Source of the DNA: an uncultured Candidatus Saccharibacteria bacterium
GTDB taxonomy: Bacteria; Patescibacteriota; JABMPQ01; JAQVVF01
DNA: 64,000 nt
Reading direction: 5' to 3'
Assembly: GCA_964574655.1 (NCBI GenBank)
Contig: CAZNOH010000001.1
Coordinates: 73,852-137,851 of the forward strand
Both the position numbers and the translations under genes were made by a program. Of this stretch, positions 7,941 to 37,631 are shown one piece after another (the first letter of the stretch is position 1; each line of letters opens with the position of its first letter). The notes below the pieces were generated by a model. That model did no database searches. It had not been told where the DNA came from and saw only the letters and a program-made list of their open reading frames with translations.

Positions 7941-8043
7941 GCATAACGGAAGCATATATCTGATGTCCGTCGAAGCGTTAGCGTAGGCGGATATGGGTGA
8001 AGTTCACCTCGTGCGGGCATAACCAGAGATACGTTGTTGTGCG
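7941..8043. repeat. attC-like imperfect palindrome E1 (GCATAAC...GTTGTGC)
   Basis: Outer boxes fit RYYYAAC/GTTRRRY with one deviation; inner inverted repeats catatatctga/ccagagatac; abuts the stop of ORF 8047..8424. Confidence 0.45.
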
Positions 8044-8046
8044 ATG

Positions 8047-8424
8047 TTAAATAATTTTTTTCAAATTTCCCAAAATACTTTCCGTAAATGGTTTACTTAA
8101 TTCACCGTTAGTCATCCATTCAAAATATTCCATTTCAGTTTTATTATCGTCTAATTTGCGATAAGTATATTTTACAAAATAATTTTCATCTAAATCCGAC
8201 AAAATAAATACCTCATTTTTTTTAATGTCTACGACTTTATATTCATCCCAATTATCACTTTCTCCGCGATTTTTATATCTCGTATTTATTTTTGGAGGAT
8301 ATTCATCAGCAACCTCTACTGAAATGGAAGGAATCCATAAGTGAGTATTTTGGGGATTTGTTGTAAACTCAAATACTTTATCAATCGGTTTATCTATGAC
8401 AACTGTAATTTTGTTTTCTCTCAT
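8047..8424 (-). CDS. SRPBCC (Bet v1/polyketide-cyclase-like) ligand-binding domain protein
   Basis: 125 aa; size and hydrophobic pattern of the SRPBCC/START superfamily; cassette-like context. Confidence 0.45.
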   Translation of the reverse strand: MRENKITVVIDKPIDKVFEFTTNPQNTHLWIPSISVEVADEYPPKINTRYKNRGESDNWDEYKVVDIKKNEVFILSDLDENYFVKYTYRKLDDNKTEMEYFEWMTNGELSKPFTESILGNLKKII

Positions 8425-8447
8425 ATTTGAAAAAATTATTTAATTTC

Positions 8448-8515
8448 GTACAACGGTCGCGAATAAAACGCAGTTGCTTTACGCAGTAAACAATTGCGGT
8501 TATTCGCTGTTGTGC
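8448..8515. repeat. attC-like imperfect palindrome E2 (GTACAAC...GTTGTGC)
   Basis: 68 bp; inner 8-bp inverted repeats gcgaataa/ttattcgc; outer boxes fit RYYYAAC/GTTRRRY with one mismatch. Confidence 0.5.
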
Positions 8516-8539
8516 GATCGTACAAAACTTTGCATCAAT

Positions 8540-9070
8540 TTATTCAATTTCAAATTTGGTTATATTTATAATTTTTTCAACTATCTGATCTTCGGAATAT
8601 GATTCCGGTAGTATAGTTTCTAATTCATGACCTGATTTATGTGCTGCAGGAAACCACTGCCTTATTTCGTCCTGACCATACTCAAAATTTGCTTCTTTTT
8701 TTTGATGCCTCTTTACTGTTTCTTCAAAACTCACATCAAAATAAAAAATATAACTTTTACCACTATGTACTGTGATCAATCTTTCGATAATTGATTGATA
8801 GGACTTTACTGAAAGAATGCCCTCTAAAATAACATTATACCCAGCTTGTAGGGCAATAGCTGTATTATGTTCAATCATTTTATGGATAACATTAGCGTTT
8901 GATTTACTTCCACCTCCAGCGGGTTTAAAAATGAATCGATAATAATCTTGGTGAATGAGTGCGGTTTTGCTTTTTGCTTTTTTAAATAAATTTTTAGCAA
9001 CAGTTGTTTTTCCTGCAGCAGATGGACCACGTAAAATTATAAATATATTTTTAGATAACTTATTATTCAT
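8540..9070 (-). CDS. P-loop NTPase/kinase (AAA_33/zeta-toxin-like fold)
   Basis: Walker A ILRGPSAAGKTT; start refined to MNNKLSK so the CDS does not overlap element E3. Confidence 0.55.
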   Translation of the reverse strand: MNNKLSKNIFIILRGPSAAGKTTVAKNLFKKAKSKTALIHQDYYRFIFKPAGGGSKSNANVIHKMIEHNTAIALQAGYNVILEGILSVKSYQSIIERLITVHSGKSYIFYFDVSFEETVKRHQKKEANFEYGQDEIRQWFPAAHKSGHELETILPESYSEDQIVEKIINITKFEIE

Positions 9071-9093
9071 ATTTTTAGCAAAGTTTTGTATGT

Positions 9094-9190
9094 TGCACAA
9101 CGTATCCGAATATCGGAAGTTGTCGAAGCGTAGCGAAGGCAATTTGCGAAAATTGCGAGCTGAGCAATTTTCCCGATATTCGGTGTTAGG
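9094..9190. repeat. attC-like imperfect palindrome E3 (GCACAAC...GTTAGGC)
   Basis: 97 bp; perfect 11-bp inner inverted repeats ccgaatatcgg/ccgatattcgg; outer boxes RYYYAAC-like and GTTRRRY (GTTAGGC). Confidence 0.55.
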
Positions 9191-9266
9191 CGAGGGTTCT
9201 TTTGCTCTACCTTAATGTAATTATATCAGATAAAAGGGCAAAAGAAAGCGCAGCGACCCCTTGAGT
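9191..9266. repeat. conserved ~80-bp cassette leader, copy 1
   Basis: Near-identical to 10009-10085 (GAGGGTTC.TTTG.CT...AAAGCG.AGCG.CCCCTTG); internal inverted repeat cttttgc/gcaaaag. Confidence 0.5.
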
Positions 9267-9286
9267 TTCGCTTTTAAGCAATAATT

Positions 9287-9874
9287 TTATTTCGTTTTTC
9301 CTGCTAATTTCATTTTCTCGTTATAATGTGCTTCAACTTCTTTTTTTATTTCAGGCCACCTCATAATCCAATTAAGCCCATCACCAGCTGATTTTATTTC
9401 CTGGCTTTCTAAAATTTCTATACGCATGCAAAATCCAGCCTTATTTTTTTCAAGATACAAAAATTGTTTTTGCTCATCTGGCAGATTAAGCAAAAATTCA
9501 TCAGAAAAGTTTGGCCATGAATATTGCCCATCGCGAATCGGACGCAACTCTGTTCCGTTTGGCGCCTGGATATATGGCCTGCTGTGTATATTAAACCTGT
9601 ATATGCCGGATTGCCAATCTGACGTGTCAACTTCAAACCATCCTGGAAAATTTTTGCTTTCTGTCAGATTAACAGCTTCAATTCCAGAAATACGATGGCC
9701 TGGTTTATTTTTTTCAGATTCTTCTTTTACTCGCTCCTGTAATACACGCTGGTCATTGTTATCTATCGGGCCATCGGGGTTTGGTCCGATCCAAAGCTGG
9801 GCCTCGCCTAAACCCAATAATTCCTTATTGAGCAAAAACAAATTTTTGTCTTGGATTTTGATGAAGTTTTCCAT
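9287..9874 (-). CDS. hypothetical protein (cassette ORF)
   Basis: 195 aa; no recognisable domain; flanked by a perfect 23-bp inverted repeat (9267-9289 and 9881-9903). Confidence 0.5.
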   Translation of the reverse strand: MENFIKIQDKNLFLLNKELLGLGEAQLWIGPNPDGPIDNNDQRVLQERVKEESEKNKPGHRISGIEAVNLTESKNFPGWFEVDTSDWQSGIYRFNIHSRPYIQAPNGTELRPIRDGQYSWPNFSDEFLLNLPDEQKQFLYLEKNKAGFCMRIEILESQEIKSAGDGLNWIMRWPEIKKEVEAHYNEKMKLAGKTK

Positions 9875-9908
9875 AGATTTAAAAATTATTGCTTAAAAGC
9901 GAAATTTC

Positions 9909-10008
9909 GCCTAACGTCTGCCGATATGCGACGTTGTTACGACCGCAGGGAGTAACAATGTAGGTGAAGGCCGAGCCGAGGCCTGAACCGCATATCGTGC
10001 TGTTAGGC
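9909..10008. repeat. attC-like imperfect palindrome E4 (GCCTAAC...GTTAGGC)
   Basis: 100 bp; textbook outer boxes RYYYAAC and GTTRRRY; perfect 9-bp inner inverted repeats cgatatgcg/cgcatatcg; further internal palindromes gttgttac/gtaacaa and ggccgagccgaggcc. Confidence 0.6.
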
Positions 10009-10085
10009 GAGGGTTCATTTTGGCTTCCTTATTATAGTTTATCAAGAAAATGCCAAAATGAAAGCGTAGCGTCCCCTTGCGTTTA
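10009..10085. repeat. conserved ~80-bp cassette leader, copy 2
   Basis: Homologous to 9191-9266; internal inverted repeat cattttggc/gccaaaatg shows compensatory changes relative to copy 1. Confidence 0.5.
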
Positions 10086-10121
10086 TTTTTTCAAATTGCT
10101 TTTCACACCAGCTTTCGCTAC

Positions 10122-10151
10122 TTGACAGTTTGCCCGCCCTCGTGGTAATGT
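10122..10151 (+). promoter_or_regulatory. sigma70-like promoter TTGACA-18-TAATGT for the GC-rich ORF
   Basis: Canonical hexamers immediately upstream of SD aaggagg and the ATG at 10214. Confidence 0.45.
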
Positions 10152-10213
10152 GCAATGTCCTTTGGACCGTGCCTCACAAGGGGCGCGAAACCGCACTTTT
10201 AAGGAGGTGCAGG

Positions 10214-10447
10214 ATGGTCAAGAACGAGACCAAGATCAAGGTGTTCGAGGTGGGGAACGGCGACGACGAGTGTGTGAAGCGAAGCCGGAGCGTGGGCGAC
10301 GTGCTCGAGGAGCGCGTCAACGCGTGGCTCAGCGGACAGAGCATCAAGGTTCTGCAGGTCGTTCAGAGCACGAACACGTCGCCCGGGATGGCGAGCTCGA
10401 CCTACTTCAGCGTCACCCTCACGATCGTCTACGAGACGACTCGCTGA
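10214..10447 (+). CDS. small GC-rich xenologous protein (77 aa), possibly dodecin-like
   Basis: About 60% GC against a ~33% background; strong SD aaggagg 6 nt upstream; beta-alpha-beta-beta pattern loosely resembling dodecin flavin-binding proteins (weak); flanked by a 13-bp inverted repeat agtttgcccgccc/gggcgggcaaact. Confidence 0.5.
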   Translation: MVKNETKIKVFEVGNGDDECVKRSRSVGDVLEERVNAWLSGQSIKVLQVVQSTNTSPGMASSTYFSVTLTIVYETTR

Positions 10448-10464
10448 CGAACATCAAACCGCGC

Positions 10465-10509
10465 GCCCGTCCGTGTCCACTGACCAAGCGTTGGTGGGCA
10501 CGGGCGGGC
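10465..10509 (+). terminator. GC-rich hairpin downstream of GC-ORF1 (gcccgtccgtgtccac...gtgggcacgggcgggc)
   Basis: 16-bp imperfect stem followed by a T-rich tract about 30 nt downstream. Confidence 0.4.
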
Positions 10510-10585
10510 AAACTTCATTCACTCTACCGAGTGCTTTTTTATTTTACAAAACTTTCACGAAAAGCAATTTGAAAAAATAAATGTC

Positions 10586-10716
10586 GCTTAACGTTAAGAA
10601 TATCTGAAGTTCATTGTAGCATAGCGGAAATGAATTTGGGTCGAGAAAATTTCTTTTTCATTAATGTAAGGAATATAAAAGTGAGAAATTTTTGAGCCAG
10701 ATATTCTTTGTTATCG
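10586..10716. repeat. attC-like imperfect palindrome E5 (GCTTAAC...GTTATCG)
   Basis: 131 bp; perfect 11-bp inner inverted repeats aagaatatctg/cagatattctt; RYYYAAC outer box; reverse strand reads ...GTTAAGC (a GTTRRRY fit). Confidence 0.5.
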
Positions 10717-10734
10717 GATGTTTTACTCACGGTT

Positions 10735-11166
10735 TTATTGGAATAATTCCCTAATTTCATCCACATAAGGTTTTAGTTCATCAAACGACAAGTCCTGTTT
10801 AGTTTTGGGATCCCTATGAAAAAGATGATATTCAGGAAGCCTACTTTTATCACCATCCGTGCGAGGCATTACGTGAAAATGGAAATGTTCGACCATCTGT
10901 CCTGCATATTGACCTTCATTGAAACCATAATTAAAACCAGTTGGCTTCAAATATTCTTCATATTTTTTAGAAACCATTTGAACTGTAGTAATGAGGTCAA
11001 TCAATTCATCTTTGGTTAGTTCGCGAATATTTGTCACATGTCGTTTTGGCACCACAATACATTGTCCTTTATTTGCAGGACGAAAATTATGAATAACACG
11101 AACATTTTCATTTTCATACAATGATTGCGCTTCGATTATTTTTGGATCACAAAACGGACAGGTCAT
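10735..11166 (-). CDS. HIT-family (histidine triad) nucleotide hydrolase
   Basis: 143 aa; HFHFHVMPR histidine-triad motif; N-terminal CPFC. Confidence 0.8.
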   Translation of the reverse strand: MTCPFCDPKIIEAQSLYENENVRVIHNFRPANKGQCIVVPKRHVTNIRELTKDELIDLITTVQMVSKKYEEYLKPTGFNYGFNEGQYAGQMVEHFHFHVMPRTDGDKSRLPEYHLFHRDPKTKQDLSFDELKPYVDEIRELFQ

Positions 11167-11198
11167 ATTTTTAAAATTAAGTGAGTGAGCAAAATTTC

Positions 11199-11385
11199 CG
11201 ATAACGTTCCCGAGTATGCGAAGCCGCGCTATTGTTTTCAGTACAAACTTACGCTTTCAGATAATACTATTTTAGCACTTCAGACACTCGATTTCAAGAA
11301 GCGCGGTTTGGGAGAGGAAAATAGCGATACCTTTGAAAATATAAAAATTATCGCTATTTTCTGAACCGCATACTCGGTGTTATCG
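11199..11385. repeat. attC-like long imperfect palindrome E6 (CGATAAC...GTTATCG)
   Basis: 187 bp; perfect 10-bp inner inverted repeats cgagtatgcg/cgcatactcg; nested inverted repeats aagccgcgc/gcgcggttt and aaatagcgata/tatcgctattt. Confidence 0.45.
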
Positions 11386-11570
11386 GATGTAAATTATTTT
11401 CATTTTTCGATTTTTTTCAACTATTCAAGGGCGAATTTTGATTCCGTTTGGCGGGGGCGCAAGAGGGGAATAAAAGGGGTGAATTGCGCCCCCGCCAATC
11501 ACTTCGTTTAAAATGAAGAAGGCCAGCGGTAATTTTCGATTGCTCGAATTTCCCGCTGGCTTAGCCCTCC

Positions 11571-12035
11571 CTATTTCTCGCAAACACCGACGAGTACGCA
11601 GTGAGGACCGCAACGATCATCGTCGGCGTATTGCTTGAGGCCGCGCGTAGGACCTCCACTGATAAAGAAGCTGCTCCTCGAACCCCCAATGAAGGCCATA
11701 TACGGGGCATCATTCAGTCCCAAATTATGGTCTTTTGCAGGGGGCAAGAGAGCTTCTGCGGGGTCGCAGAGACGCACGCCAACCTCACGAAAAGCGGCTT
11801 CCACGTCCGCACGGTAGACGATCCCGTCTGCACGCTTGAACAGCTTGCCGGAGACGATGCAGAACATCACCGTCTCGACACCCTGCCGCTCGGTCGGGAA
11901 GTTGTTGTCGGTGATGTCCCTGTCTACGCCATGGTATTGACCCTCACTGGCGAGTTGGGCGATGATGTGCGAGTTCCTGTTGAGCTGGAGCACGATCTTG
12001 TTGTCCGCGATTGCTCTTTTGAGTGTTTGCGACAT
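11571..12035 (-). CDS. GC-rich xenologous hypothetical protein (154 aa)
   Basis: About 58% GC with strong GC3 bias at the 5' end; SD aaaggagag 5 nt upstream of the ATG; two GC-rich hairpins downstream (tggcgggggcgca...tgcgcccccgcca; gccagcgg...ccgctggc); no confident family. Confidence 0.5.
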   Translation of the reverse strand: MSQTLKRAIADNKIVLQLNRNSHIIAQLASEGQYHGVDRDITDNNFPTERQGVETVMFCIVSGKLFKRADGIVYRADVEAAFREVGVRLCDPAEALLPPAKDHNLGLNDAPYMAFIGGSRSSFFISGGPTRGLKQYADDDRCGPHCVLVGVCEK

Positions 12036-12104
12036 TTTCACTCTCCTTTTGTGTTTGTCTTTCCCCGCACCCGTCGCGGAGTTAGACAATTTAATCTATC
12101 ATGT

Positions 12105-12134
12105 ATATAATACTTGTAAATACTATATGTCAGT
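12105..12134 (-). promoter_or_regulatory. candidate promoter (CTGACA-18-TTATAT) reading into the cassette array
   Basis: On the minus strand, about 70 nt upstream of the GC-ORF2 start; a Pc-like position. Confidence 0.3.
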
Positions 12135-12265
12135 AAATAATGATAAAATATGCTAAAATAAAGCAAAATAATGAGATAAATTACAAAATGTAAGTAATTA
12201 TTGACACAATTTAGCTGTTGTGATAGGATAGAAAAATCTATCTTGGATATTTAGCCACCAAACCT

Positions 12266-13051
12266 ATGGAAAACTTAATCAAAGATCTCGGACTTGATGA
12301 AAACGAGGCGAATGTATATCAAGCCCTTTTGGAACTTGGGCCGTCTACTGTTAGCCAAATAACAAGAAAAGCGGGAATTACCCGAACATTCGGCTATCAA
12401 ATTTTAGAAAAGTTAAGTGTGTATGGATTTGTCAATCGTGTATCGGGGGAGGGTGCAAAAATTCGTTTTGTAGCAGAACACCCGAGACGCTTAGTGCAGT
12501 TTATCCAAAACAGAAAAAATCAATGGGAAAGACGTCTTAAAGAAGCAGAAGACAGATTACCTGATTTAGTATCTTTGTATAAACTTGCCGATAAACCTAC
12601 TATTAAATATCTGGAAGGCATAGAAGGAGTAAAGTCAATTTTCATCCAAACACTTGAGTCAAAAGAGGAAATTTTTTCTATTTTGGACATCGAGGGTTGG
12701 GATATTCCTGAATTTCAAAGTTGGGGTAGAGAATATAACCGAGAAAGAAGTGCGCGGAAAGTAAAAGAAAGAATACTTATGTATGACACGCCACAAGGTA
12801 GGGAGTGGATGGATGACTATCGGGGTTCGTTCAAATATACAAACTGTCGTTGGATAAAGCCCGAAGATTTACCAGGAATTAGAGAATTCGGTGGCGAAAT
12901 AAATGTTTATGAAAATAAAGTTGTAATGGCCTTGCTGAAAAAGCCAAACATAATGGGGGTGGTGATTGAAAGCCAAGCATTGTCAAATATTTTAAAAGGT
13001 TTGTTTGAGTTGGCGTGGAAGCAAGGTATTGAAGTCAAAAGAAAAAAATAA
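12266..13051 (+). CDS. TrmB-family transcriptional regulator
   Basis: 261 aa; N-terminal wHTH LGLDENEANVYQALLELGPSTVSQITRKAGITRTFGYQILEKL typical of TrmB; promoter TTGACA-17-TAGGAT at about 12203. Confidence 0.65.
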   Translation: MENLIKDLGLDENEANVYQALLELGPSTVSQITRKAGITRTFGYQILEKLSVYGFVNRVSGEGAKIRFVAEHPRRLVQFIQNRKNQWERRLKEAEDRLPDLVSLYKLADKPTIKYLEGIEGVKSIFIQTLESKEEIFSILDIEGWDIPEFQSWGREYNRERSARKVKERILMYDTPQGREWMDDYRGSFKYTNCRWIKPEDLPGIREFGGEINVYENKVVMALLKKPNIMGVVIESQALSNILKGLFELAWKQGIEVKRKK

Positions 13052-13057
13052 AAAATC

Positions 13058-13083
13058 GTCCCGCCCGAGTATACGGGCGGGAC
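13058..13083 (+). terminator. GC-rich hairpin gtcccgcccg-agtata-cgggcgggac
   Basis: Perfect 10-bp stem after the trmB-like stop; no T-run, so it could be a recombination or regulatory site instead. Confidence 0.35.
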
Positions 13084-13260
13084 ATCATATTTCCCCTAAT
13101 CAAATAATTATCAAAATTCGCCCCTCAATTATCAAAAAAATCGAAAAATGAAAATAATTTATTTCCGATAACTCGTTTATATCTATAATGTTTACAAATA
13201 GTATGCTAAATTTTGTATAATTGTGCTATATTATTGTTGTAAAAAGTAATTTTTTATTTA

Positions 13261-14072
13261 TGCCTAGTTTAATAGAAATTATGAAGCGGGACATGGAAAT
13301 CCTAAATTACAGCCAAAAGACAATTGATGCTTATCAACGAAATATTGCGGAATTGTATAGATTTGTAAAAAAGCCATTGAGGAATTTAGATGAGAATTCG
13401 ATAAAGGATTTTTTGAGCCAGAAACAGAAAAAAGGTTTATCAAGTCAGTCCATTGCTTTGGCGGTGAATGCGATTAATTTTCTTTATACTCGCATATACA
13501 AGGATCCTGATTATAAAAAAATGCGACATCCTAAGCGTTCTAAACGTTTGCCAGTGGTATTGTTGAAATCAGAGATTGAAAGAATTATTGAGCAGACAAA
13601 TAATAGAAAACATAAATTAATTATTGCATTGGCGTATGCTGGTGGTTTGCGTGTTAGTGAGGTTGTCAGTCTCAAGGTTCAAGATATTGATATAGATGCT
13701 TTGACATTGATAGTTCGACAGGGGAAAGGAAAAAAGGATAGATTAACAGTGCTTTCTAAAAGAATTATATCAGATTTGAGTGAAATGATAAATGGCAAGC
13801 ATAGTTTTGATTATGTTTTTGAAAGTGAACGAGGTGGCAAGTTGACTGTAACAACAGTTCAAAAAGTATTTAGCAAATGTTTAGAAAAATCAGGGGTTAA
13901 AAAACCTGTGACTTTTCATTCTTTGCGCCATAGTTTTGCAACGCACTTGTTAGAGAATGGCACTGATATTCGCTATATTCAAGAATTGCTAGGACATCAA
14001 AATATTCGAACAACGCAAATTTATACGCAAGTAACGAATCCGAGTATTAGGAAAATTGTAAGTCCGTTTTAG
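13261..14072 (+). CDS. tyrosine site-specific recombinase (XerC/XerD/IntI-like)
   Basis: C-terminal HSLRHSFATHLL...LLGHQNIRTTQIYTQV (R-H-R-Y catalytic region); RLPVVL and GKGKKDR boxes; N-terminal SAM-like core-binding domain resembling IntI/Xer; an alternative start at 13221 is possible. Confidence 0.85.
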
Positions 14073-14133: not shown

Positions 14134-17100
14134 ATGATAGGAAAGCCATCTGAAGAAATAAAAGAGCGGTTGGATATTGTGGATTTGATTTCAGAATATA
14201 TTCAACTAACACCTGCTGGTGTTAATAATTTTAAAGCAAGGTGTCCTTTTCATAATGAAAAAACGCCGTCTCTTTTTGTATCCAAAGATAAGCAGATTTT
14301 TAAATGTTTTGGATGTTTTCCCAAGGGTGCAATCATTAGAACGGTAGAAGGCAACAAGGCAATTGATCGATTGAAAATTGGTGATTTAGTCTTGACGCAT
14401 AAAAGTCGATATAAGCCGGTAATTAAGTTATTTAAAAGAGATTATAAGGGACTTATGGTTGATGTTATAACGCGAAAATTGAATGAAGTTGTTTCTCTGA
14501 CTTCTGATCATAAAGTTTTTGTAATAAAAACAATAAATTGTAAACAAAAAAATAGAGAATCAAGGATTTGCCAACTACGATGTACGCAGAATTGTCCGAC
14601 TAAATATTTTAAGGATTATAAAATTAAAAAAATATTAGCAGGAGAATTGAAGCAGAATGATTATTTGCTTTATCCAATCGATGAAAAAGTTGTTGATATA
14701 AAAAAAATAAATTTAAAAAAATATTTGACTAAGAAAAAACCAATTCATGGCAAGGAGATTAGAAAATTGCCTGATTACTTAACTGTTAATTCTGATTTAT
14801 TAAAGTTATTAGGCTATTGGATTGCTGAGGGCAGTAGTCATCGAGCATATATCAGATTTAGTCTTGGCAATCATGAAGAAATTTTTGCTAATGATATTGT
14901 AAAATTGCTTTTTAAAGTTTTTAAATTAAAAGCAAGTATTTATCGAAGAAAAAATACTGAAAAAACAGGCTTAGAGATAACTTGTTGCAATTCTAATTTG
15001 GCGAATATTTTTGAAAATTTGTGTGGAAAGGGTGCTTTGAATAAACATATACCATTTGAATTTGTGAATTTACTTGCTAGAAAACAAAGAATTTTGTTAG
15101 AGGCGATTCATCGAGGGGATGGTTATCAAGGGTTTGTGAATGATAGTAAAAGAAAATATAGAGCAATTACGGTAATTTCTAGAACTTTGACAGATCAGAT
15201 GAAAGAGATTTTGTTGCGTTTAAATTTAATGCCAACTTTGTTTATTGCTGATGAAAAAGTTGACAAGAAAGGGGTTCGTCATAAAAAATCTTACACTCTA
15301 AGCTGGCAGGAAAATATTTTAGGGCATTATGCTGATTTTTATAGATTTGATAAAATTAAATATTGGATTTTGCCAATAAGAAAAATTGTGAAAAGAAAAT
15401 TTTCTGGAACTGTTTATAATTTGATGGTAAAAGATGATCATTCTTATACAACAACAAATTTTACAGTTGGTAATTGTGGAGAGGGCGGCGATGTTTTTTC
15501 TTTTGTGATGAAAATGGAAGGATTGGAATTTGTTGATGCATTAAGAATTTTGGCGGTTAAAGCTGGCGTGGAATTGAAACGCGAACAGCCAGAATTTTAT
15601 TCTAAGCGAGCAAGAGTTTTAGAAATTTTAAAATTATCAGCGGAATATTATAATTTAGCATTATTAAAAAGTAAAAGCGGACAAATTGCTAGGGATTATA
15701 TTGCGACAAGGAAATTAAAATCAGAAACTGTTAGTCAATTTAAATTAGGATTTTCACCTGATGATTGGGAAATGCTGTCTAGGTTTTTAAAGTCTCGTGG
15801 ATTCAGAGATGATGAAATTTTAGCAAGTGGAATGGTTGTGCCAAAAGATTATGGCAGATATTATGATCGATTTAGATTTAGATTAATGTTTCCGATTTGG
15901 GATGGACAGAATAATGTGGTTGGATTTACGGCCAGACAATTGAGAGAAGAAAAAAATATGGGCAAGTATATTAATACTTCGCAAAGCTTGGTTTATGATA
16001 AGAGCCGAGTGATTTATGGATTGAATTTTGCTAAGTCAGATATAAGAAGAGAGGATAGGGTGGTAATAGTTGAGGGCAATATGGATGTGATTGCATCGCA
16101 TCAGGCAGGAGTTAAAAATGTTGTGGCATCTTCTGGGACGGCTTTGACTTCAATGCAAATTGATTTGATAAAAAGGTATACAAATAATGTTGTTTTTTCT
16201 TTTGATATGGATTTGGCTGGAAATATGGCAACACAGAGAGGAATTGATTTGGCATTGGAATCAGGATTGAATATTAAAGTGGCAGTACCTAAAAAAAACA
16301 ATGACGTGAAAGATCCTGATGATATTATAAAAACAGAAGGCGTTAAGGCATGGAAAGATGTAATTAATTCGGCAAAATCAATTATGGATTATTATTTTGA
16401 AAGCAATGCAGAAAAATTAAATTTAACTGAAGTTTTAGATAAAAAAATAATGGCAAAGTTTTTATTGCCAAAGATTAAAAAAATTCCGGACAAGGTTGAG
16501 CAGGCGCATTATTTGCAAAAATTGGCAGGATTGCTTTTGGTTGGTGAGGATATTTTGCGAGAAGCAATGGGAAAAACACGAGTTTTACATGGCTATGGAA
16601 GATCGGCAAGTGCAAAAGCATCCGCCTTCGCTCCAACTGTGGTTGGAGCTTCCACCTACGCAAATGCTTCGGCGGACAAGCCGGTGGACAAAGAAAGCGA
16701 AACTGAATTGTTGCAGGAGCGTCTTTTTGGCTTGATAATGTCTGATTTTGAGAACTTTAAAAAGCTAGAAAGCTTTGATTTAGGGTTATTTAATGATCAA
16801 ATAAGTTCACTTTACAAAAGAATAAAAGAATATTATAATGATAACAAATCATTTGAGTTCAACGTCTTTAGTTCTGAATTAGAAAAGGATTCAGTTGTTT
16901 TGTCTTTATTTGCCAAGGAGCTAGTTTTGGGGATTGAAAAGGAGCAAAGTCAGCGAGAGAAAGGTGAAATTTTTGAAATCAAAAAAGAGGTAGATAGATG
17001 CCTGAACAGATTGACAGAAAATGATTTAAAGAAAAGATTAATGGATATTGAGGCGCAAATGCGCAATGCAGAGGTCAGCAAAAATGTAGAGAAGGTTACT

Positions 17101-17163
17101 GATTTGAGCAAGCAGTTTAATGTTTTGTCACAAAAGTTAGATAAAGTTAACGAGATTATCTAA
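14134..17163 (+). CDS. dnaG: DNA primase DnaG interrupted by an intein
   Basis: CPFHNEKTPSLF...FKCFG | intein | CGEGGDVFSFVM reconstitutes the zinc-binding CHC2 motif; TOPRIM VVIVEGNMDVIASHQAG; 1009 aa including a 387-aa intein. Confidence 0.9.
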   Translation: MIGKPSEEIKERLDIVDLISEYIQLTPAGVNNFKARCPFHNEKTPSLFVSKDKQIFKCFGCFPKGAIIRTVEGNKAIDRLKIGDLVLTHKSRYKPVIKLFKRDYKGLMVDVITRKLNEVVSLTSDHKVFVIKTINCKQKNRESRICQLRCTQNCPTKYFKDYKIKKILAGELKQNDYLLYPIDEKVVDIKKINLKKYLTKKKPIHGKEIRKLPDYLTVNSDLLKLLGYWIAEGSSHRAYIRFSLGNHEEIFANDIVKLLFKVFKLKASIYRRKNTEKTGLEITCCNSNLANIFENLCGKGALNKHIPFEFVNLLARKQRILLEAIHRGDGYQGFVNDSKRKYRAITVISRTLTDQMKEILLRLNLMPTLFIADEKVDKKGVRHKKSYTLSWQENILGHYADFYRFDKIKYWILPIRKIVKRKFSGTVYNLMVKDDHSYTTTNFTVGNCGEGGDVFSFVMKMEGLEFVDALRILAVKAGVELKREQPEFYSKRARVLEILKLSAEYYNLALLKSKSGQIARDYIATRKLKSETVSQFKLGFSPDDWEMLSRFLKSRGFRDDEILASGMVVPKDYGRYYDRFRFRLMFPIWDGQNNVVGFTARQLREEKNMGKYINTSQSLVYDKSRVIYGLNFAKSDIRREDRVVIVEGNMDVIASHQAGVKNVVASSGTALTSMQIDLIKRYTNNVVFSFDMDLAGNMATQRGIDLALESGLNIKVAVPKKNNDVKDPDDIIKTEGVKAWKDVINSAKSIMDYYFESNAEKLNLTEVLDKKIMAKFLLPKIKKIPDKVEQAHYLQKLAGLLLVGEDILREAMGKTRVLHGYGRSASAKASAFAPTVVGASTYANASADKPVDKESETELLQERLFGLIMSDFENFKKLESFDLGLFNDQISSLYKRIKEYYNDNKSFEFNVFSSELEKDSVVLSLFAKELVLGIEKEQSQREKGEIFEIKKEVDRCLNRLTENDLKKRLMDIEAQMRNAEVSKNVEKVTDLSKQFNVLSQKLDKVNEII
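14314..15474 (+). mobile_element. intein with LAGLIDADG homing endonuclease inside dnaG
   Basis: Starts with Cys (CFPKGAIIRT); block B TSDHKV; two LAGLIDADG motifs (LLGYWIAEGSS and LLEAIHRGDGYQG); ends ...NFTVGN followed by the Cys+1 of the extein. Confidence 0.8.
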
Positions 17164-25022: not shown

Positions 25023-25092
25023 GAAAAAATGCAATTGTGAAAATAAGAAGAAAAAAGGTCGCGAGGAGGTCCAACCTCCAGCGGGAGGTTAG
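25021..25092 (+). pseudogene. truncated duplicate of the arsR 5' end (MKKCNCENKKKKG...) fused to a REP sequence
   Basis: First 12 codons match the arsR at 27194; the reading frame runs into the REP hairpins. Confidence 0.5.
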
Positions 25093-25117
25093 ACCTCCAG
25101 TTTAGACCTCCAGTTTA
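25061..25117. repeat. REP-like hairpin cluster (ggaggtccaacctcc / ggaggttagacctcc)
   Basis: Two or three tandem short hairpins; the same 30-mer gcgaggaggtccaacctccagcgggaggtt recurs at 25802. Confidence 0.65.
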
Positions 25118-25801: not shown

Positions 25802-25850
25802 GCGAGGAGGTCCAACCTCCAGCGGGAGGTTGGACCTCCAAGAAGTAAAA
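25802..25850. repeat. REP-like hairpin cluster (second copy)
   Basis: gcgaggaggtccaacctccagcgggaggttggacctcc, in direct orientation to the copy at 25061. Confidence 0.65.
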
Positions 25851-29734: not shown

Positions 29735-29883
29735 TGTTAAAAAACTCTAAACTCTAAATACTAAATTCTAAATAAATTCAAATTGCAAAATTTAAAAATT
29801 AAAAACTTAACGTTGATATTTTAAATTTTTGTTATTATAATTTTGGATTTATTTAGGATTTAGAGTTTAGAATTTAGAAATTT

Positions 29884-37432: not shown

Positions 37433-37631
37433 TATAAAAAATTCTAAATTCTAAACACTAAATCCTAAATAAATTCAAATTATCAAAATTCAAAAAGTGT
37501 TTTTTGTTTTTGGTATTTTTTTATTTTAAATTTATTTAGAGTTTAGAATTTAGGATTTTTAATTTTAGTTCATTTCTATTATAATACATTTGGGAAGAGT
37601 ATTCCCGTCCTTTGAAAAATAGGAGGGCAGG

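Follow-up and report, generated by a model that had tools for sequence, protein, structure and literature searches.

We analyzed a 64,000-nucleotide (nt) window from an uncultured Candidatus Saccharibacteria bacterium (contig CAZNOH010000001.1, positions 73,852 to 137,851; all coordinates below are those of the window), in which a GC-rich segment at positions 10127 to 10514 interrupts AT-rich DNA. Taken as a whole, the evidence makes it likely that this segment is carried as cargo by a mobile cassette of the integron type, the third of six in an array (7941 to 13172; top strand, minus) with a tyrosine recombinase gene at its head. As cassette cargo, the segment is ordinary in kind. It is unusual in its extreme composition, in a nested-repeat, self-promoted, and antisense layout that is common to a distant relative, and in its host system, the integrase of which fails one of the features that define IntI. 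The surrounding recombinase-array system is more unusual than the GC-rich segment. An earlier note on this DNA had described the segment as a foreign cassette and did not mention a 23-nt repeat around it, the attC-like sites that flank it, a second GC-rich island (11443 to 12090), or the recombinase gene (13251 to 14072).

The GC-rich segment lies in cassette 3 (677 bp; 9915 to 10591; top strand, minus). Copies of this cassette were found in three other metagenome assemblies, on contigs of ~1 kb (L001 to L003) that each came from a different project. In all three, identity to the window is confined to the stretch from within the left R box (..AA|C) to within the right R box (GCYTAA|C), and the neighboring open reading frames (ORFs) to the left and the attC-like site to the right differ in each contig. 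Because conservation spans the region from the left R box to the right R box, the attC-like site at 9909 to 10008 travels with the 77-amino-acid (aa) gene of the GC-rich segment, and because this left-hand site moves with the gene, the cassette corresponds to 9915 to 10591 and the top strand of the array is the minus strand. The bounds of the cassette are attC-like sites (RYYYAAC...GTTRRRY), not the 13-bp inverted repeat by which the earlier note had delimited it; the term cassette used in that note proves apt, and in a stricter sense than was meant there. The copies share an AT-rich scaffold around a GC-rich core and show sequence divergence and compensatory changes, and cassette 3 is now known in at least four different array contexts. 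Its presence in three other assemblies with different neighbors therefore demonstrates mobility and excludes the chimeric misassembly against which the earlier note had cautioned. In one of the contigs (L002:1150-1226; coverage of 2.5x), the sequence switches right after the stop codon to a different GC-rich stretch at the contig end, which represents either an assembly artifact or a variant 3' end. The predicted junction of the excised circular cassette 3 reads …GCTTAA|CGTCTGCC….

The GC content was 0.565 to 0.63 in 200-nt windows over 10100 to 10499, compared with ~0.30 to 0.37 in the flanks and a mean of 0.334 over the 64-kb window, in agreement with the ~60% and ~33% GC given in the earlier note. 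At the edge of the segment, the composition shifts by ~0.3 within a few bases. The 77-aa ORF has a GC content of 0.61 and a GC content at third codon positions (GC3) of 0.91, and the untranslated regions and hairpin of its transcription unit are likewise GC-rich. A comparison with the host, as the earlier note had suggested, set this GC3 apart: other scored genes of the window, including those for the recombinase, dnaG, and rpoD, had values of 0.21 to 0.35, except for the second GC-rich ORF (0.68).

The elements that had been described for the segment were all present. On the plus strand, a predicted sigma-70-like promoter (10122 to 10151) consists of TTGACA (10122 to 10127), an 18-nt spacer, and TAATGT (10146 to 10151), with transcription predicted to begin near 10158. 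It is followed by the Shine-Dalgarno (SD) sequence AAGGAGG (10201 to 10207; 6 nt ahead of the ATG at 10214), the 77-aa ORF (10214 to 10447), a GC-rich hairpin at the end of the gene (10465 to 10509; 20 bp, −45.3 kcal/mol, z of −5.8), and, directly after it, a small terminator hairpin with a T-run (10520 to 10533), such that the 3' signals span 10465 to 10543. The −35 hexamer is invariant in the four copies, and the −10 hexamer reads TATTGT, TAATAT, and TATTAT in the three others (TAWTRT overall). Being antisense to the array, the 77-aa gene is unreadable from an array promoter, which accounts for its own promoter, SD sequence, and terminator. The 13-nt inner inverted repeat is also real. Its left arm, AGTTTGCCCGCCC, starts at 10127 (one position to the left of where it had been placed) and ends at 10139, at the AT/GC boundary within the promoter spacer; it is kept in L001 and L003 and has one change in L002. 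The right arm (10502 to 10514), the reverse complement of AGTTTGCCCGCCC, overlaps the 3' arm of the GC-rich hairpin. The window contains no other match to the 13-mer, and tolerating one mismatch adds none (0 expected from 100 shuffles). The repeat has a counterpart in kind, not in sequence, at the AT/GC boundary by the −35 hexamer of a distant relative. An Arg-rich alternative frame of 140 aa, previously dismissed as a GC artifact, is interrupted by stops in the relatives and is indeed an artifact.

Evolutionary comparison and structure prediction together indicate that the 77-aa ORF is a genuine coding gene. Its reading frame is intact in the four copies, the indels are in frame, and the ratio of nonsynonymous to synonymous substitution rates (dN/dS) is 0.16 to 0.72, with copies diverging by up to 25% in protein. 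An AlphaFold2 (AF2) model (mean predicted local distance difference test [pLDDT] score of 83.8) returned the beta-alpha-beta-beta pattern that had been read from the sequence. The resemblance to dodecins that the earlier note had seen was unsupported, with no match to the dodecin fold or family. No match for the protein was detected in Pfam or NCBIfam. Only three close relatives occur among 5.8 billion clusters, in addition to approximately five remote relatives with profile-level matches reaching an E value of 5e-13; profile-search matches of >1,200 aa were to repetitive proteins with unrelated domains and were taken as spurious. A Foldseek comparison with viral structures pointed to Cse60/DUF1737-type proteins (TM score of 0.6 to 0.65, best E value of 4e-3), a weak, fold-level lead only. 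The product is thus a small alpha/beta protein with two layers. One remote relative (L008:198-1898) is not GC-rich and lies in a noncassette setting in which no attC-like site was found. It is divergently oriented from a gene for a TrmB-like regulator (29% identical to that of the window) and upstream of an unrelated 168-aa ORF. These arrangements hint at a functional link between the 77-aa protein family and TrmB-like regulators. The 168-aa neighbor of the remote relative P0008 was also considered and proved unrelated to the 154-aa GC-rich protein of the window.

Six attC-like sites delimit the array. Two rigid attC scanners based on regular expressions and stems were too strict, recovering three of the six, and a covariance model (R1) built from 12 aligned sites of the window and two related contigs was used instead. 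R1 detected exactly six sites in the window; they lie within 7941 to 11385, each on the minus strand, and there were none beyond. Starting from the recombinase, the attC-like site of cassette 1 is at 11199 to 11385 (63.6 bits, E value of 4.7e-12), and the same site follows the same cassette in another contig (L004). The site of cassette 2, which carries an HIT-family gene, is at 10586 to 10716 (62.8 bits), and its outer R box, GCTTAA|C (10586 to 10592), forms the right-hand end of cassette 3 in plus-strand coordinates. The site of cassette 3 (9909 to 10008; 69.0 bits, E value of 2.8e-13) reads GCCTAAC ... GTTAGGC on the plus strand. Those of cassette 4 (with a 195-aa ORF at 9287 to 9874, sense to the array), cassette 5 (with an AAA_33 kinase-like ORF at 8540 to 9142, identified by Pfam), and cassette 6 (with an SRPBCC-like ORF at 8047 to 8424) are at 9095 to 9191 (71.5 bits), 8448 to 8515 (34.2 bits), and 7941 to 8042 (66.3 bits), respectively, the last being the distal end of the array.

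Covariation supported the pairing of these sites. In the 12-site alignment, 87% of the R-box and main-stem cells were paired, compared with 22 to 41% when the partners were slid by one to three columns, and 12 of the 18 pairs were altered on both sides. On four of five measures, none of 500 shuffles matched the observed value. The sites contain the conserved internal motifs GGTTCAG, CCCAAATTT, and ACTTC, all of them have a 3-nt excess on the R'-L' arm, and the first TTRRRY of each cassette is complementary to its own R''. Rfam gave no match for the sites, the side-hairpin module described below, or the cargo at either gathering or permissive thresholds. A plus-strand orientation of the array, suggested by the box order and the longer left arm, was rejected on the basis of the conservation boundaries, the position of the recombinase gene, and the orientation of the ORFs. 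Five of the seven cassette ORFs of the window are sense to the array (minus strand). Since the longest ORF is on the attC top strand in 23 of 30 cassettes of related arrays, antisense cargo such as the 77-aa gene is a minority state.

At the head of the array, a lone CGATAAC (13166 to 13172) lies 79 nt from the start codon of the recombinase gene and has no attC partner to its right. We regard this as the attI-side junction, with a putative attI, at 13166 to 13250 (minus strand): CGATAA|C on the plus strand is G|TTATCG when read on the top strand, and cassette 1 starts there. Cassette 1 (11386 to 13171; minus strand) is a two-gene cassette, with a TrmB-like gene and a 154-aa ORF, that recurs in a metagenome-assembled genome (MAG) of Candidatus Magasanikbacteria at ~97% identity over ~1.97 kb. 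The first identical position is precisely at G|TTATCG, and the identity runs into the R' box of the cassette's own site, where it stops. Upstream of G|TTATCG, the window has the attI-like region, whereas the Magasanikbacteria MAG has the site of another cassette. The recombinases of the two genomes are 44% identical, and the array loci differ (dnaG-rpoD in the window versus an EF-Tu/ribosomal operon in the MAG). Because cassette 1 is ~97% identical between loci that differ and that have such divergent recombinases, cassettes have been exchanged between divergent genomes. The MAG array also includes short cassettes without an ORF. Within cassette 1, the second GC-rich island (11443 to 12090; minus strand) comprises the 154-aa ORF (11571 to 12035; GC3 of 0.68, sense to the array) and two GC-rich hairpins. 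This ORF is divergent from the AT-rich TrmB-like regulator gene, and the pair recurs with its GC contrast in the Magasanikbacteria MAG and other contigs (relatives P0004-7). Neither the 154-aa nor the 195-aa protein had a match in Pfam or NCBIfam.

Outside the 13-mer, cassette 3 has a perfect 23-nt outer inverted repeat (10082 to 10104 and 10559 to 10581). The repeat is perfect in all three copies that hold both arms, with two compensatory double changes in L003, and neighboring genes of the window carry similar private repeats. When the ends of cassette 3 were joined to mimic an excised circle, the predicted DNA fold was one hairpin in which the R boxes and the main stem stacked coaxially with the 23-bp stem. 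A ~72-nt module (10009 to 10081; GAGGGTTC, a hairpin, and GAAAGCGTAGCGTCCCCTTGCG) between the R box and the outer stem formed a side branch of this fold. The predicted fold of cassette 4 was alike, with a different 23-mer and a homologous side-hairpin module (9192 to 9265). On these models, the 23-nt repeat is the base of the recombination hairpin, not an insertion scar. Side-hairpin modules of ~60 to 75 nt containing GAAAGCGYAGCG were also seen in L001 to L003 and in L004:11590-11649, and a similar motif, CGCTACGCTTCG, occurs within the variable tips of the sites at 7941 to 8042 and 9095 to 9191.

Such self-complementarity is not limited to cassette 3. Many cassettes lengthen the hairpin outward by a cassette-specific stem of 12 to 64 bp, some with a side hairpin. 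Among 30 cassettes from other genomes, start-to-end pairing exceeded the 95th percentile of mismatched-cassette controls in 13 (~1.5 expected). The cassette bodies of the window (8043 to 13165), taken without their attC-like sites, had single-stranded DNA folding z values of −2.3 to −6.4, compared with −2.4 to +1.6 for 12 control segments; for cassette 3, the mixed composition makes the value look more extreme than it is. Self-complementary repeats were also noted inside coding regions (e.g., 9459 to 9476 with 9829 to 9846 and 10867 to 10891 with 11099 to 11123).

The recombinase gene (13251 to 14072; plus strand) encodes an IntI/XerA-like protein of 273 aa from its ATG and is transcribed away from the array. 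Pfam assigned Phage_integrase (7.5e-44) and Phage_int_SAM_4, a SAM-like N-domain. Among NCBIfam models, XerA_Arch scored 234.6 (cutoff of 220), and the integron integrase model TIGR02249 scored 208.7, below its cutoff of 265 and in two stretches. The best PDB match was the Vibrio integron integrase IntI4, and archaeal XerA was equally good end to end. In the alignment to VchIntIA (2a3v), residues 10 to 198 and 239 to 316 were covered, with nothing opposite residues 199 to 238. As judged from these alignments, the recombinase is devoid of the ~40-residue IntI-specific additional domain (I2 helix), which the literature regards as defining the IntIs of bacteria and archaea and as required for attC recombination (PMC9668308, PMC7790495).

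A scan of one genome per species revealed 127 relatives of the recombinase (46 to 63% identity, ~270 aa, no insertion), nearly all from Patescibacteria MAGs, with matches that cover 270 residues within 810 nt. We ran the site model on the best 80 of the 127 loci and obtained 85 attC-like matches in ~37 of them, with up to ten sites in one locus. All 85 matches were on the strand opposite to the recombinase gene, and 84 were upstream of it, in match-bearing loci that provided 251 kb of upstream versus 280 kb of downstream sequence. A site was present in ~30 of the 37 loci that had at least 2 kb of upstream sequence, and R1 matches were found in more than 40 loci besides the window. Given the uniform strand and the nearly uniform upstream position of the matches, the pairing of the short recombinase with the array is conserved as a unit. 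One locus (L074; JADHVH010000026.1), labeled Candidatus Pacearchaeota archaeon, encodes a short recombinase of 50% identity with two attC-like sites upstream, which reflects either misbinning or the presence of the system across domains. Several other recombinase loci are labeled Actinomycetota, Gammaproteobacteria, or Bdellovibrionales; the match-bearing loci inspected among them (L037, L069, L072, and L085) are AT-rich, and their taxon labels may be wrong as well. No description of such an integron-like system in the candidate phyla radiation (CPR)/Patescibacteria was found in the literature searched, which is no proof of novelty.

On this basis, cassette 3 comprises its own attC-like hairpin site, the 72-nt side hairpin, the 23-bp outer stem, and the cargo. 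The outer stem would extend the recombination hairpin whenever the cassette is single stranded or circular. The cargo is a complete GC-rich transcription unit (promoter, SD sequence, 77-aa ORF, and terminator) inserted antisense to the array, and the 77-aa gene would be expressed from its own sigma-70-like promoter. We propose that the cassette moves as a unit, with site-specific recombination taking place in the R boxes at their conserved G|TT, an exchange that the neighboring recombinase presumably catalyzes.

Several observations weigh against this proposal. Because the recombinase lacks the additional domain, its catalysis of attC exchange is unproven. The sites are noncanonical in their asymmetry, with spacers on the top strand of 1 to 2 nt on the R'' side and 4 to 5 nt on the R' side, and a bulged T on the L'' arm was predicted for the site at 9909 to 10008 and not for that at 9095 to 9191; canonical attC sites have extrahelical bases near L'' on the bottom strand and an unpaired central spacer (PMC5027507). 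The −10 hexamer is weak in the window. It matches only three of six consensus positions, and for this reason a consensus scanner did not call the promoter. The earlier suggestion that the cassette carries its own promoter still has the conserved hexamers of the four copies in its favor, and the promoter may be active. Finally, the proposal assigns no role to the 13-bp repeat.

That repeat is the starting point for an alternative in which the GC-rich unit is a small nonautonomous mobile element with 13-bp terminal inverted repeats that was inserted into a preexisting, perhaps empty, cassette. The perfect repeat falls exactly at both AT/GC boundaries, a relative in L089 has a 17-nt repeat at the equivalent boundaries, and the Magasanikbacteria MAG array contains short ORF-less cassettes. 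However, the flanks of the repeat, CTTGAC and TTCATT, are not duplicates of one another as a target site would be, no further copies of the 13-mer were found in the window, and no transposase was identified. The absence of target-site duplication and of dispersed copies, both of which characterize miniature inverted-repeat transposable elements (MITEs) and insertion sequence (IS)-derived elements, leaves a MITE-type insertion unsupported. Moreover, all known copies occupy one position in one and the same cassette scaffold, and the right arm also belongs to the terminator hairpin; we consider such an insertion unlikely. A chimeric assembly or a contaminating GC-rich fragment would explain the abrupt composition shift. 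Such an origin is scarcely credible given that scaffold and core occur together in three independent assemblies with divergence and compensatory changes, and that the promoter straddles the junction. The strong hairpins and the very negative folding z of the cassette body could instead mean that the segment is a structured RNA in which the ORF is incidental. The ORF alone folds like its shuffles (z of −0.8), however, and the conserved frame with in-frame indels, the confident protein model, the remote protein homologs, and the absence of an Rfam match make this very improbable.

Another alternative concerns the recombinase and not the cassette. The array could be an attC cluster served in trans by a canonical IntI encoded elsewhere, with the adjacent short recombinase being a housekeeping Xer-type enzyme whose presence there is fortuitous or serves some other purpose. 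In favor of this, the recombinase clears the XerA cutoff, falls short of the IntI cutoff, and has no I2 helix, and attC clusters without an integrase are common in bacteria (PMC9668308). The conserved adjacency and orientation across ~37 loci of many CPR lineages argue against this possibility, as do the frequency of sites where enough upstream sequence was available, the occurrence of the pair at different chromosomal positions, and the G|TT junction at which the first cassette of the window adjoins the recombinase gene. We regard service in trans as improbable.

The source of the high GC content is a separate matter. Since the whole transcription unit is GC-rich, including its noncoding parts, it looks like foreign DNA acquired en bloc and not like a product of codon selection. 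Capture of a transcription unit en bloc from a high-GC lineage is the leading reading, and we favor it by a modest degree. In this respect, the recent horizontal acquisition from a high-GC donor put forward in the earlier note is plausible but unproven; the searches yielded no such donor, and the remote relatives that lie in similar cassettes share the GC richness. The following points count against a single recent transfer. Neither a high-GC donor nor a high-GC relative was present among ~15 billion proteins. The four copies still have a GC3 of 0.88 to 0.91 with synonymous divergence (dS) of up to ~0.3, and polarized substitutions gave no clear sign of decay toward AT, with 44 from G/C to A/T versus 23 in the reverse direction, which is nearly equal per available site, on small counts and a crude polarization. 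Two remote relatives, P0011 and P0009, likewise combine high GC with AT-rich surroundings. P0011 (~35% identical; GC3 of 0.80) is in another cassette of the same design and unrelated sequence. The attC site of that cassette, on the strand opposite to the gene, scores 52 bits; there are also a side hairpin, an outer repeat of 31 nt, an inner repeat of 17 nt that overlaps the TTGACA of the gene, and a repeat of 15 nt close around the ORF. For P0009, GC3 is 0.73 versus 0.37 for its flanks. A maintained trait, or capture on several occasions, accounts for these data no less well than a single recent transfer.

The same observations (the persistent GC3, the similar per-site rates in both directions, the shared layout of the P0011 cassette, the GC3 of P0009, and the missing donor) favor the alternative that high GC is a maintained property of the cassette or gene family, perhaps selected for nested DNA/RNA structure, expression, or stability. 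Set against this are the GC-rich noncoding parts, which suggest a regional composition, and the other cassettes, which are strongly self-complementary yet AT-rich. In addition, P0008 and P0015 show no marked GC richness, related arrays seldom contain GC islands (1 of 37), and the substitution data are limited by their small numbers and crude polarization. Maintenance is a real possibility to which we give less credence than to capture en bloc.

These results bear on two old questions about integrons, namely, how an integrase came to recombine folded single-stranded sites and how cassettes arise. Recombination of single-stranded sites has been attributed to the acquisition of the I2 helix (PMC7790495), and a recombinase without I2 that acts with attC-like arrays would represent an ancestral-type or parallel solution. 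For the second question, the GC-rich cassette offers a complete and compositionally alien transcription unit inside a host-type recombination scaffold. As a tentative view, Patescibacteria may carry a widespread integron-like lineage in which the integrase never gained, or lost, the I2 helix and in which a different site asymmetry and long outer stems yield rod-like, fold-back cassettes, with the GC-rich cassette being a snapshot of cassette genesis. If true, the system would be a natural test case for the evolution of single-strand site recognition and of cassette making. Apart from this view, the data show that these small-genome, mostly uncultivated bacteria, many of which are thought to be symbionts, exchange cassettes, and surveys requiring the IntI-specific domain will miss or mislabel such systems.

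Other elements of the window were recorded in passing. Next to the recombinase gene, the gene for DnaG primase (14134 to 17163) is split by an intein with an LAGLIDADG homing endonuclease (Hint/Intein_splicing/LAGLIDADG_3) and is followed by rpoD. Genes for a transfer-messenger RNA (tmRNA) and a tRNA elsewhere in the window identify it as part of a bacterial chromosome. A 34-nt GC-rich palindrome, GGAGGTCCAACCTCCAGCGGGAGGTTrGACCTCC, occurs at 25065 to 25098 and 25806 to 25839, 707 nt apart, and AT-rich inverted repeats of AAACTCTAAA/ATTTAGAGTTTAGA-type units at 29742 to 29875 and 37434 to 37563 form hairpins with loops of 70 to 84 nt.

Among known systems, the closest are the sedentary chromosomal integrons, such as the V. 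cholerae superintegron with VchIntIA (2a3v). They share with the window a recombinase gene divergent from short, mostly single-gene, and mostly co-oriented cassettes; imperfect-palindrome sites with RYYYAAC/GTTRRRY boxes, an invariant AAC/GTT, and crossover at G|TT; a first cassette joined to an attI-like region; and cassettes common to several genomes with cargo mostly of unknown function. The window system differs from them in its ~273-aa recombinase, which has no I2 domain, in the spacer asymmetry, internal motifs, and outer stems of its sites, and in its Patescibacteria hosts. Archaeal integrons likewise have arrays of cassettes with attC sites, recovered in MAGs of uncultivated lineages with small cells, and they have been argued to be platforms for cross-lineage transfer (Ghaly et al. 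2022, PMC9668308). Their IntIs are reported to have the additional domain (PMC9668308), which the window recombinase lacks. An integrase caller requiring the IntI-specific domain would probably classify the window array as a cluster of attC sites lacking integron integrases (CALIN, an IntegronFinder term). Unlike CALINs, it adjoins a dedicated recombinase in an orientation that is conserved across many genomes, and it is therefore not orphaned.

In the Xer-dependent modules, including Acinetobacter pdif modules and integrative mobile elements exploiting Xer (IMEX), Xer-family recombinases move gene modules bounded by inverted recombination sites. These pdif/dif sites are ~28 bp long, with two 11-bp arms and a 6-bp spacer. 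The window sites are instead hairpins of 68 to 187 nt with attC-type boxes (no search was aimed at dif-like sites), organized as a one-directional array next to the recombinase gene. Chromosomal integrons also hold inverted, self-promoted cassettes, for example, those for toxin-antitoxin systems. Cassette 3 resembles these in that its gene is antisense to the array and has its own putative promoter, and it differs from them in that the 77-aa product has neither a toxin-antitoxin-like partner gene nor a hydrophobic toxin character and that the cargo is extremely GC-rich relative to the scaffold. The Cse60/DUF1737-type proteins of phages and Bacillus are beta-alpha-beta-beta proteins of ~60 to 75 aa, like the 77-aa protein, with no sequence-family match to it. 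With respect to membership among integrons, the I2 domain is absent from the window system, whereas an adjacent divergent recombinase gene, attC-type sites, cassettes with G|TT crossover, and an attI-like junction can all be recognized in its sequence.

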